Positions 7,793 through 11,368 of a stretch of 32,000 bases of DNA are shown in pieces. This DNA comes from Promethearchaeota archaeon (GTDB taxonomy: Archaea > Asgardarchaeota > Lokiarchaeia > Sigyniarchaeales > Promethearchaeaceae): positions 167,199 through 199,198 of the forward strand of contig JAFGBS010000008.1 in the NCBI GenBank assembly GCA_016933055.1, written 5' to 3'. Within the stretch, counting starts at the first letter, position 1. Each line of letters starts with the position of its first letter. The position numbers and the translations under genes are program-made. Under the pieces are notes generated by a model. It was not told the DNA's origin. It saw nothing but the letters and a program-made list of their open reading frames with translations, and ran no database searches.

Positions 7793-9181
7793 TCAGGATC
7801 GGATTTTCCTTAAAAGAGAGATGAAATAACCTGTGCTATAATCCCCCTTAGGGTTCACTCGAATAAGTTTTTTTGCATCTTTCTTAGTCAGCGTGAAATA
7901 CCGATCTAAATCTCTTTGATGAATAGAATCCGCAAATGGATTATTGTTTAGCAAAGGTTCATTCCGTGGTATACCTGATTGAAATTCATCTTTATATAAT
8001 TGCATTCTATTTTCTCCGATCACTTCAGATAATAATGAATAGGCATCAAGGATCTCAAAACCGAACTTTCGGTTCATGAGCGATACAATTCCCTCATTTT
8101 CCATTAAAGTGAGGGTACATGTAGTATATAATACAATTCCTCCTTGTTTCAGGTATGCAAAGATATATTTCACAAACCGGCGTTGTAGTAAAAAAAAATT
8201 CCGATAATCTTCTGCTGAGTGTTCAATACTTAGTTTTGGACGTGTACCTAACGCAGAACATGGCGGATCGAATACCAGTAAATCTGCTTTATTTAAGAGG
8301 TCTGGATGAGACTGTGATGCTTTCTCAAGTTGATAGGGTATGACACGAAAATTTTTGAGCCCCAATCGATCAATATCCTGATGTAATCCCTCTAATCGTT
8401 TTTTAGATCTGTCAATTGAAACAATTGTGGGGAATTGTTTATATTTTTGATAACCCATTTCAGAAAGGGCACATCCCATGTGACCTGGAGCACTACACAC
8501 ATCAAAAATCACGTTTTGGTCCTTGTAGAATTCCATTAATAATTTACACGCAAGAAAAGGTCCAAATGAGTGATCGGAAATAAAACCTTTAGAGAAGAAA
8601 TTTGAATCTCTATAAGAAGGAGTTCGATACTTGGACTTGGTGGTTTTTATACCAATTCCCTTCTTCTTATGTACAATTTCACTATGGCTCAACTGAGTTA
8701 TCCCATTTGCAACATGGGAATGATTAGGGCTGTAGATCGAAAATTCCTCACCTTTTTGGAATTTAGGAAGAGGTTTTAAGAATCCGGGTATGTACAAATT
8801 AGCTCCAATCATAATGGATTCGGCAGCATATTTATCAACTACAATTTCTCGTGATAGTTTTTGCAGGAAAAAAGGGCCATCTACTGGGATAAATATTAAA
8901 TTCGGTACGGAATCACTGGACTTAGCACGCAATTGATTGACAATTTTCTCGAGTACATTCTTATCTGGACTTTTATCAATTCGGACAGGATTGATGCGAA
9001 GTGAAAACCATTTTTGTGGCGTTTGTAATGCTGAAATTAAATTATGTACCTCTTTTTTGAAGTTCTTTCGTGAGTTTTGAAAATAACACACTTCTATAAG
9101 ACGTTGGATTGTGGAAACTGAAAATCCTGTTTTTTGGGCTGTTTTCGATATCCAATCTTTATCAAGGTTATTTGAACTCAT
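7793..9181 (-). CDS. RsmB/NOL1/NOP2/Sun-family RNA m5C methyltransferase with PUA domain (NSUN6-like architecture)
   Basis: PUA-like AAESIMIGANLYIPG...KGEEFSI...VANG; motif I DVCSAPG, motif IV DPPCSALG and motif VI YTTCTL...ENE, with both catalytic Cys present. Confidence 0.9.
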   Translation of the reverse strand: MSSNNLDKDWISKTAQKTGFSVSTIQRLIEVCYFQNSRKNFKKEVHNLISALQTPQKWFSLRINPVRIDKSPDKNVLEKIVNQLRAKSSDSVPNLIFIPVDGPFFLQKLSREIVVDKYAAESIMIGANLYIPGFLKPLPKFQKGEEFSIYSPNHSHVANGITQLSHSEIVHKKKGIGIKTTKSKYRTPSYRDSNFFSKGFISDHSFGPFLACKLLMEFYKDQNVIFDVCSAPGHMGCALSEMGYQKYKQFPTIVSIDRSKKRLEGLHQDIDRLGLKNFRVIPYQLEKASQSHPDLLNKADLLVFDPPCSALGTRPKLSIEHSAEDYRNFFLLQRRFVKYIFAYLKQGGIVLYTTCTLTLMENEGIVSLMNRKFGFEILDAYSLLSEVIGENRMQLYKDEFQSGIPRNEPLLNNNPFADSIHQRDLDRYFTLTKKDAKKLIRVNPKGDYSTGYFISLLRKIRS

Positions 9182-9185
9182 TTTT

Positions 9186-9190
9186 TCACC
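9186..9190 (-). promoter_or_regulatory. Shine-Dalgarno sequence (GGTGA)
   Basis: AAGGTGA followed by AAAAATG at the methyltransferase start. Confidence 0.6.
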
Positions 9191-9198
9191 TTATAATA

Positions 9199-9488
9199 AT
9201 CCCTGTCGGATCACCACAGACCGAGTAGAACTTTATTAATCAATTTTGTCCCCACTACCCTATGTACTACGAACTACGCTAAAAGCCTACCTACTAACTA
9301 TCGTGTACTGATAGGTGGTTTTTATTGTAGGTGCACCTATAAGCGTAAAATTACCCTAAAATTCACGATATGGGTAACTCACGTGTATTCCACCAATTGG
9401 GTATTTTGGTAATGTTATTACATAATATAGTGGGATATACTGAAATAGGTGTATTGGGACCCTTAAAAGAACGTGGTGGATATGGGAT
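9199..9488. ncRNA. Candidate structured non-coding RNA or cis-element of unknown family
   Basis: Nested complementary segments found by hand: 9199-9203/9484-9488, 9210-9217/9473-9481, 9248-9263/9445-9460, 9275-9280/9342-9347, 9285-9290/9327-9332, 9293-9302/9310-9319, 9351-9356/9372-9377, 9385-9393/9430-9440. No credible ORF; C-rich 5' half and G-rich 3' half. Confidence 0.5.
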
Positions 9489-9656
9489 AGATGTCGATTA
9501 GTATAATTTTAACGTGATATTCATTTTGAGTATAAATATGGGATTGTTTTTCGAAAATTCTTACCTTAATTCTTATAAATTTTACAGATAATGTTAATAT
9601 AGATTCAAATCGAAAGATGTGTGATTTTAAGTAAAAAAAAAACAACGTTGATTATA

Positions 9657-10154
9657 ATGGGAACAAAAGGTAAAGAAATAGTTAATTTAGATGTAGAAAA
9701 ACTGTTGGAATTGCTCAATAAAGCACTAGCTGATGAATGGTTGGCGTATTATCAATATTGGGTTGGTTCGGAAGTTGTAAAAGGACCTATGCGACCAAGT
9801 GTAGAAAAAGAACTAAAAGAACATGCCGAAGAGGAATTTAAGCATGCTGGTATGCTCGTAGAGAGAATCATTCAACTTGGGGGCACTCCTCTCTTGAATC
9901 CCAAAGAATGGTTTGAAAAAACGAATTGTGATTATGAGGTTCCATCTGATCCCCATACTGTGAAATTATTACAACAGAACATTAAAGGGGAGCAGTGTGC
10001 AATTCAAGTCTATCATAACATTCTTGAATTCATCAAAAAAGGTAACGATCCGATCACATTTAATATGATTCGAAAAATAATGGAAGAGGAAGTAGAGCAT
10101 GAACAAGATTTAGAAGACCTTCTCGACGATATCAACACAAAAAGAGAATTATAA
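9657..10154 (+). CDS. DPS-like (DPSL) / bacterioferritin-related ferritin-superfamily protein
   Basis: ALADEWLAYYQYW, EHAEEEFKHA, NIKGEQCAI and EEEVEHEQDL di-iron motifs, closely resembling the Bacteroides-type DPSL. Start placed at ATG 9657 (MGTKGKEIV); the ORF track extends to a GTG at 9621. Confidence 0.9.
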   Translation: MGTKGKEIVNLDVEKLLELLNKALADEWLAYYQYWVGSEVVKGPMRPSVEKELKEHAEEEFKHAGMLVERIIQLGGTPLLNPKEWFEKTNCDYEVPSDPHTVKLLQQNIKGEQCAIQVYHNILEFIKKGNDPITFNMIRKIMEEEVEHEQDLEDLLDDINTKREL

Positions 10155-10322
10155 TAATATTAAAGATTGTTATAATTAATGTCCTCAGTAAATTTGCCCC
10201 ATTGGGTAATATTTTTAATTTTTTATATTAATATTTTATAAAAGTTTACAGAACACAATAAGCTGTGATTATTAACAGAATTATACATTTTCAATTACAG
10301 AATTTACTTACTACATGGAAAA

Positions 10323-10454
10323 ATGAGAAAACAATGCCAGATGCAGATCGAAATTGTTATTTGAAAATTGTGGAGAAAATACGCTGCAGATGCTATAATT
10401 TGTGAAATTTGCGGAGAAAGTAAAAAATATGTCAAAAAACTCCCGATTAATTAG
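10323..10454 (+). pseudogene. Degenerate small double zinc-ribbon ORF with an in-frame TGA
   Basis: MRKQCQMQIEIVI*KLWRKYAADAIICEICGESKKYVKKLPIN; a shifted frame reads ENCGE over the first half, and the two halves are imperfect DNA repeats. Confidence 0.4.
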
Positions 10455-10477
10455 AAAACAACCAAACACATAAATAG

Positions 10478-11095
10478 ATGAAAATAAAACAGCTCACTGC
10501 TGATCTAATTATGAAACCCGTAGCCCCTTTGATGATAGAACATCGCTTAATAGAACGGATGATCGATATATTAGAAGATGAACTGCGACAAATTAAAAAA
10601 TCTAAAAAAGTAAACCCTATTTTGATAGAAAATGCGGTCGATTTTATTAGAACGTACGCTGATCAAACTCACCATGGAAAAGAAGAAGATATCCTATTCC
10701 GAGAACTAAAGAAAAAGAAAATTTTACCTGAACATGAGGAAATTATGTTTGAATTGATAGAAGAACACAAAATTGGAAGAAAAATCACCGGGGAGTTAGT
10801 AAAAGCAAATGAGGAATATAGGCAAGGTAAAATAGAAACATTGGACACCATCATGGAAAAACTATCATTTCTTGTAGATTTTTACCCCAAACATATTGAA
10901 AAAGAAGATAAGCACTTCTTTATTCCAATAATGAAGTATTTTTCCAAAAATGAGCAAGATACAATGCTTGAAGAAGGTCGCGTGTTTGATAGGAAAATGA
11001 TTCATAAGAAATATCGAAATTTAGTGATGGAGTACGAGAAAGATCACGATATCACCCCCAAACAACAGCAGTCTGACTGGATAGATTACATTTAA
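10478..11095 (+). CDS. Hemerythrin/HHE cation-binding domain protein
   Basis: EHRLIER, DQTHHGKEEDILF, EEHKIGR and HIEKEDKHFF metal-ligand motifs; may start at Met 10511. Confidence 0.9.
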   Translation: MKIKQLTADLIMKPVAPLMIEHRLIERMIDILEDELRQIKKSKKVNPILIENAVDFIRTYADQTHHGKEEDILFRELKKKKILPEHEEIMFELIEEHKIGRKITGELVKANEEYRQGKIETLDTIMEKLSFLVDFYPKHIEKEDKHFFIPIMKYFSKNEQDTMLEEGRVFDRKMIHKKYRNLVMEYEKDHDITPKQQQSDWIDYI

Positions 11096-11125: not shown

Positions 11126-11249
11126 TGCAGAAGCAGGGGAATGATCCCTGGACCTCAGGATATCTCATAAGATATCCAGCGCTATGTCTGAAATCTGACC
11201 CAGATTTCTCATTATGAGTCCTGCGCTCTACCGACTGAGCTACTTCTGC
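11126..11249 (-). tRNA. tRNA-Met (CAU), elongator type, 51-nt intron at 37/38; CCA not encoded
   Basis: Acceptor GCAGAAG/CTTCTGC plus A73; D-stem GCTC/GAGC; anticodon stem CAGGA/TCCTG with loop CT-CAT-A^A; T-stem CAGGG/CCCTG. G1:C72 and no three G:C pairs in the anticodon stem, so not the initiator. Ile2(CAU) is not fully excluded. Confidence 0.92.
11162..11212 (-). other. tRNA-Met intron with strict bulge-helix-bulge motif
   Basis: Central helix CUCA/UGAG, bulges UA^A and AU^A, flanking intron helix UGAGA/UCUUA. Confidence 0.9.
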
Positions 11250-11256
11250 ATGTTTA

Positions 11257-11368
11257 TGGAGCTTCCGGAGGGATTTGAACCCTCGGCCTCTGCCTGTTTG
11301 GTGTTATGGATAGATTTCAAAATCAGTCCAATACCAAGGCAGCGTAATAACCTCTATGCTACGGAAGC
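11257..11368 (-). tRNA. tRNA-Thr (GGU), 36-nt intron at 37/38; CCA encoded
   Basis: Acceptor GCTTCCG/CGGAAGC, U73, CCA; anticodon stem CTGCC/GGCAG with loop TT-GGT-A^A; T-arm GAGGG-TTCAAAT-CCCTC. Confidence 0.92.
11296..11331 (-). other. tRNA-Thr intron with BHB-type motif (short outer helix)
   Basis: Central helix UUGG/CCAA, bulges UA^U and AC^A, then UG/CA. Confidence 0.85.

Follow-up and report, generated by a model that had tools for sequence, protein, structure and literature searches.

Some prokaryotic MITEs derive from IS630 elements, and the Correia elements of Neisseria carry a TA target duplication. TA-flanked MITEs, comprising Correia/NEMIS of Neisseria and the elements derived from IS630/Tc1-mariner transposons, such as SM1 of Sulfolobus, are small, lack genes, end in inverted repeats with a TA on both sides, occur in tens of mostly intergenic and taxon-restricted copies, and form a long rod when written as RNA. 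The Sulfolobus MITEs can be linked to resident ISC elements that have the same ends. A second group of interest comprises the IS200/IS605 palindrome-associated elements and TnpB omega-RNA regions, which feature a conserved subterminal hairpin, a possible single-strand recognition element, and include short non-coding derivatives; IS200/IS605 elements lack terminal inverted repeats and a 2-nt flank repeat and have a hairpin at each end. The size, inverted ends and copy number of prokaryotic MITEs have been reviewed (PMC10969869 and PMC11602168), and the four MITE families of Sulfolobus solfataricus, SM1 to SM4, are present in 25–44 copies per genome (PMC10969869). We found no paper in the searchable literature that links MITEs with Asgard archaea, and no Asgard MITE family.

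To place one such candidate in this context, we analyzed a window of 32,000 nt (the whole stretch of DNA considered here, C15:167199-199198) from a 3.76-Mb assembly of 35% G+C, a 91%-complete MAG. A sequence-only reading of this window had proposed a novel structured RNA of about 290 nt at positions 9199–9488. Our analysis indicates that window positions 9237–9500 are very probably one diverged member of a DNA transposon family that is non-autonomous and confined to the genus, in other words a MITE. The family matches the reviewed MITE properties and has each of the features of TA-flanked MITEs listed above; it further resembles SM1–SM4 in being archaeal, non-autonomous and of similar copy number (43 loci here). 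Its TA flanks fit an IS630/Tc1-mariner-derived MITE, a likeness in general properties that does not in itself establish descent from IS630. Unlike the Correia and IS630-derived MITEs, the family has no DDE_3 or other fitting transposase in either genome of the genus and contains a strongly conserved, covarying internal hairpin pair (P1–P2) that is atypical of them, and unlike SM1–SM4 it has no parent element that we could find. The family has the conserved subterminal hairpin of the IS200/IS605 group, but only one such hairpin; its inverted ends and flank repeat, together with a genome devoid of TnpA and TnpB, argue that it is not an IS200/IS605 derivative. The features of the locus, in window coordinates, are the following.

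7793–9181, minus strand: RsmB/F-type RNA methyltransferase with a PUA domain (Pfam PF01189, E=4e-24; PF01472, E=9e-11)
9199–9236, unstranded: unique flank DNA outside the element, without family similarity; the 5' flanks of other copies are unrelated
9237–9500, plus strand: full-length MITE-like copy of subfamily A, 264 nt including both flanking TA (nhmmer profile, window 9234–9503, E=3e-49)
9237–9255, plus strand: left terminal inverted repeat, TA followed by ATCAATTTTGTCCCCAC, a block that every subfamily A copy retains at its 5' end
9274–9330, unstranded: P1, a conserved long palindromic hairpin (covariance model R1 and pair counts over 30 copies)
9329–9338, unstranded: P2, a small hairpin AGG-NNNN-CCT directly 3' of P1, conserved throughout the subfamilies and also in the sister species
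9482–9500, plus strand: right terminal inverted repeat, ATGGGATAGATGTCGAT followed by TA, a 3' block conserved across subfamilies
9621–10154, plus strand: ferritin/Dps-like protein (Pfam PF00210, E=1.5e-32)

The element lies between the divergently oriented methyltransferase and ferritin genes, in their promoter region; the identities given to these genes before are borne out by the Pfam matches above. The element is located 55 nt from the methyltransferase start, where a Shine-Dalgarno-like GGTGA is found 5' of the ATG, and about 155 nt from the ATG near 9657 that is probably the start of the ferritin/Dps-like gene. It may alter transcription of both neighbors, although this is speculation. 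Only ORFs of 42–43 aa overlap 9199–9488, in agreement with the earlier description of this stretch as non-coding, and its G+C content of 33–43% is indeed higher than that of the promoter DNA at 9500–9650 (20–24%). Further along the window, a hemerythrin-domain gene (10478–11095) comes after the ferritin/Dps-like gene, and the pair forms a small iron and oxygen-stress cluster (window 9621–11095). Two tRNA genes are found on the minus strand at 11126–11249 (124 nt) and 11260–11368 (109 nt); both give full-length matches to the Rfam tRNA model (54.6 and 48.5 bits), which at these lengths points to intron-bearing genes, whereas ARAGORN reports no tRNA anywhere in the window. Elsewhere, this genome (G000) harbors a eukaryote-type actin gene at G000:C6:299695-300807 that matches the whole Pfam Actin model with 435 bits, and two further, more divergent actin-family genes are found on C2 and C27. 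The SRP-like and RNase P-like RNAs of the genome, matched by archaeal models, are on contig C6 and not on the contig of the window. These RNA matches, the intron-bearing tRNA genes and the actin mark the organism as archaeal, and with genomes of 3–6 Mb among relatives in its family the picture suits a Loki-type Asgard archaeon.

The fold described by the sequence-only reading is readily reproduced. RNAfold assigns the plus strand of 9199–9488 an energy of −79 kcal/mol (z = −2.60), with 2 of 200 dinucleotide shuffles as good, so the folding is beyond shuffles on this strand and not on the minus strand (z = −0.79); for the element proper, 9237–9500, the corresponding values are −2.55 (plus) and −1.02 (minus). 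Each of the pairings that had been listed, namely the outer rod, the helix 9248–9263/9445–9460, the hairpin 9275–9347, TTACCC/GGGTAA and GTATTCCAC/GTGGGATATAC, is present in both the minimum free energy and centroid structures. No Rfam 15 covariance model matches 9100–9650 at its gathering score or at E≤10, in line with the absence of known RNA families (SRP, RNase P) reported before. The boundaries, in contrast, were wrong, as family comparison places the unit at 9237–9500. The 5' arms of the two outermost helices (9199–9217) fall in unique flank that has no family similarity, and the outermost rod is thus a chance pairing with the conserved 3' end of the element. The rod with three arms is a by-product of two inverted ends and internal palindromes; the fold is real, but its limits and kind were misassigned, and what is folded is one old member of an orphan family of MITEs.

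The ends of the element were fixed by aligning TAATCAA...TCGATTA with other copies. The window unit opens with TA-ATCAATTTTGTCCCCAC at its 5' end and closes with ...GGGATAGATGTCGAT-TA at its 3' end, and the right repeat, once reverse-complemented, agrees with the left one over TAATCAA and over the CCCAC block. Subfamily A ends are 5' TAATCAA-N7-CCCAC and 3' GTGGG-N7-TTGATTA; TAATCAA/TTGATTA is common to all subfamilies and the sister species, and the first 7–9 nt of the left repeat are likewise conserved across this range, within family inverted repeats that are imperfect and about 20–35 nt long. The TA dinucleotides at 9237–9238 and 9499–9500 form a putative target duplication. P1 lies about 35 nt from the left end, and its consensus stem has 12 bp below a UU bulge and about 7 bp above it, capped by a tip that varies; in the window copy the tip is longer and the base partly mismatched. 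What had been described as a single long hairpin at 9275–9347 corresponds to P1 and P2 combined. The remainder of the element forms hairpins that differ between copies, while the closing helix of the family is the pairing of the two inverted ends. RNAalifold recovers P1 alone from a 17-copy MAFFT alignment, and P1, the terminal helix and one variable hairpin from 11 canonical copies. A run of CTA triplets at window 9255–9300, which has also been read as a UAG protein-binding track, falls partly in the conserved 5' region of the element and partly in the 5' arm of P1. Other copies have it too, as CTAC repeats of the family consensus, and it is therefore not specific to the methyltransferase.

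Used as a query against the genome, the 290 nt returned a dozen partial matches. A finer blastn comparison revealed two conserved blocks that mark the two ends of a unit of about 260 nt. An nhmmer family profile yields 48 hits in the genome, including about 18 full-length copies of the subfamily to which the window copy belongs (A), and an iterated P1-core profile resolves the hits to 43 unique loci on many contigs. The ends and core of subfamily A recur in at least two more subfamilies, whose subterminal and central DNA is different. Full-length family copies are gene-less, measure about 200–320 nt (264 nt in the window) and are old, with identities of about 60–85%. None of the 43 loci lies inside an ORF of ≥110 aa in a genome that is 86% coding by the same ORF call, and orientation relative to tandem neighbor genes is random (12 same, 11 opposite). 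The neighbors are unrelated metabolic genes, and the family is not tied to methyltransferase or ferritin genes. Covariance model R1, built on the 5' 109 nt of the element, matches this genome 34 times and the single congeneric genome six times, and it finds nothing in 39 genomes that represent other genera within the family and order. Two longer patterns gave 0 or 3 chance hits in JGI metagenome contigs and IMG/VR, none of which fit the family profile. A 16-mer scan of genome contigs, a pattern too short for this purpose, returned chance matches only, plus one unrelated repeat. This GC-rich repeat of about 250 nt occurs at least four times (L079, L080, L107 and L126) in the MAG "bacterium isolate TamC13-09" and surfaced solely through a 16-mer that it has in common with the MITE family.

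Several loci bear witness to past mobility. The copy at C17:704101-704367 (L190:702-968) splits a gene of the URO-D family (PF01208), the 3' half of which covers PF01208 positions 147–346. Removal of this copy restores a frame of 453 codons, only if 2 nt (one TA) are kept, and the intact URO-D paralogue at C15:56969-58114 gives a single HSP that runs through the junction. A paralogous empty site is provided by C13:18169-18331, which aligns with the joined flanks of the C4 copy over 163 nt that span the junction (83% identity) and has 2 nt in place of the element and its two TAs; as the empty sites come from diverged DNA, the junction is resolved to about ±1–3 nt. Three copies of the sister species could be placed on this genome by conserved flanking genes. 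At the position of sister copy L046 this genome has, at C5:78317-78406, an 88-nt gap containing one TA; the counterpart of L052 is a 74-nt gap on C24, and that of L056, a full element, is a 347-nt gap on C2 with only an 18-nt end-like remnant. This 18-nt stretch, at G000:C2:179150-179170, resembles the right end of the family and could be what is left of a decayed copy or of an excision.

TA is present at both ends of nearly all copies; since the dinucleotide is self-complementary, its duplication is indistinguishable from the outermost bases of the inverted repeat. Copies that abut one another, whether in tandem, head-to-head or tail-to-tail, have exactly one TA in common, which suggests an insertion preference for the TA beside the end of an existing copy, a palindrome TTGATTAATCAA. 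Abutting copies are found at G000:C17 ~760829, C2 ~36558, C6 ~401112 and C16 ~252729-253010. Two further candidates for excision or vacancy were rejected: the joint 9289->9464 in DNA run X1 turned out to be a family copy located on another contig, and the methyltransferase locus of the sister species, which has no element, adjoins a different neighboring gene. In a second DNA run (X2), the contigs end before they reach the element.

We searched for a mobilizing enzyme using seven Pfam families. No TnpB (PF07282), IS110, IS630-type DDE_3, DDE_Tnp_4, rve or Y1 TnpA (PF01797) was found in this 91%-complete MAG, nor was DDE_3 found in the second genome of the genus; TnpB omega-RNA and IS110 bridge-RNA readings of the element were rejected, as the genome has no such genes. 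The sole transposase matches are IS4/5-like, broken in G000:C8 and intact in sister G001:C33, and these were dismissed as partners since their ends are unrelated to those of the family. The broken IS4/5-like DDE gene, at C8:3190-3495, is interrupted by four stop codons, and the assembly as a whole is poor in insertion sequences. No long element with TAATCAA...TTGATTA ends was found in the genome. One candidate autonomous element, C15:37659-39754 (21/27 end matches), was discarded, since it contains a short-chain dehydrogenase gene and its right "end" lies within another ORF. With no fitting transposase found, the family is an orphan, and for want of such an enzyme in either assembly the present copies are probably immobile relics. 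The family thus combines short, gene-less units, terminal inverted repeats, a TA flank repeat, many copies and evidence of mobility, the hallmarks of a MITE, with no related autonomous element in this MAG.

In the mechanism that we favor, a cut-and-paste transposase supplied in trans would recognize the TAATCAA ends and insert at TA, duplicating it, and the P1 hairpin would probably act as a second recognition or architectural site for the transposase or an accessory protein. P1 itself is well preserved: across 30 copies, 89% of cells are paired versus 35–52% in slid controls, and double-change cells number 35 versus 10.9 ± 3.2 in shuffles. Furthermore, the P1–P2 core is better conserved across subfamilies and species than subterminal DNA. 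Under transposition, this covariation would reflect selection on master copies for mobility and not RNA function, and it would follow subfamily descent; template-switch repair of palindromes could add to it. Conservation of P1–P2 and covariation in P1 are out of the ordinary for a MITE in decay, and a role for the host or as an RNA is conceivable. We entertain, as a tentative and rather unlikely extension, a transposase outside current profiles, carried on an unbinned mobile element of this genus, that reads the ends together with P1–P2, or else a P1–P2 module retained by the host, either as an RNA or as a site for protein binding.

A related explanation is that these are host-maintained elements of the REP/BIME or ERIC type, in which the end palindromes and P1 are host protein sites or terminator/stability hairpins, spread by a dedicated or unknown enzyme and now serving the host. 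The intergenic position of all copies, the conserved and covarying internal hairpin, the T-run of 4–7 that follows the distal P1 stem in many copies and the absence of a classical transposase would all be expected on this account. Yet the copies are randomly oriented with respect to neighbor genes, one of them inactivates a gene, their sites differ between the two species and no host benefit is evident here, all of which make this account improbable; it also overlaps with that of a "domesticated MITE" and is compatible with transposon origin.

The headline interpretation of the sequence-only reading, a novel ncRNA, riboregulator or methyltransferase guide or leader, fares worse. Were the family a set of multicopy genes for a structured ncRNA of about 260 nt, each copy independent, with the window copy encoding the proposed RNA, then the stability of the plus strand of the window copy relative to shuffles, the compensated differences in P1 among copies and the status of the P1–P2 core as the best-conserved part across subfamilies would be readily explained. 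The family as a whole, however, shows no strand asymmetry. Among 43 copies the P1–P2 core has the lower minimum free energy on the plus strand in 21 and on the minus strand in 22 (p=0.80), the full elements (n=27) divide 14:13 (p=0.43), and mismatches in P1 are of the G-U type in 25 cases and of the A-C type in 19 (p=0.45), so that the pattern expected of a structured ncRNA gene, with G-U tolerated and A-C avoided on one strand, is not seen in the family. Equal folding of both strands and balanced mismatches indicate that the structure is a DNA-level symmetry and not a strand-specific RNA. The preference for a plus transcript drawn earlier from G-U pairs holds for the fold of the window copy and is a feature of that copy alone, because neither strand is favored across the family. 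The two metatranscriptome runs of the source study contributed no sequence at the locus and so favor neither view. In addition, the 5' flanks of the copies have no conserved promoter-like block, the family is confined to one genus and matches no Rfam family, and the inverted TA-flanked ends, presence or absence at matched sites and the gene-splitting copy are those of a mobile element. The genome search for dispersed copies, named beforehand as the result that would speak against an RNA, gave 43 loci with a conserved core, and we regard independent ncRNA genes as very improbable. The weakest proposal, that the minus strand gives the methyltransferase mRNA a long, structured 5' leader or a riboregulator, has in its favor the position of the element just upstream of the start codon and its Shine-Dalgarno-like sequence and is hardly credible, given a minus strand that folds no better than shuffles, an orthologous methyltransferase in the sister species without such an element upstream and 42 other copies that adjoin unrelated genes. 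The MITE-like fold-back element, which had been put forward as the main alternative to an RNA, is the reading that the dispersed copies, TA-flanked inverted ends, empty sites and split gene support.

Recognition of this family corrects the record at the locus, in that an apparent 290-nt three-arm RNA beside an RNA methyltransferase is a transposon relic and so does not belong in catalogs of novel Asgard ncRNAs; the same trap awaits at about 43 loci of this genome. The family is also a usable marker of strain-level genome dynamics in the genus. Finally, as a family without an evident transposase and with a covarying hairpin in an IS-poor genome, it is a lead to the missing mobilizing enzyme of the genus. 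If a transposase outside current profiles does read these ends and P1–P2, or if the host has put P1–P2 to use, the family would make visible a transposon superfamily not yet described, or an instance of domestication, in the archaea that stand nearest to eukaryotes.
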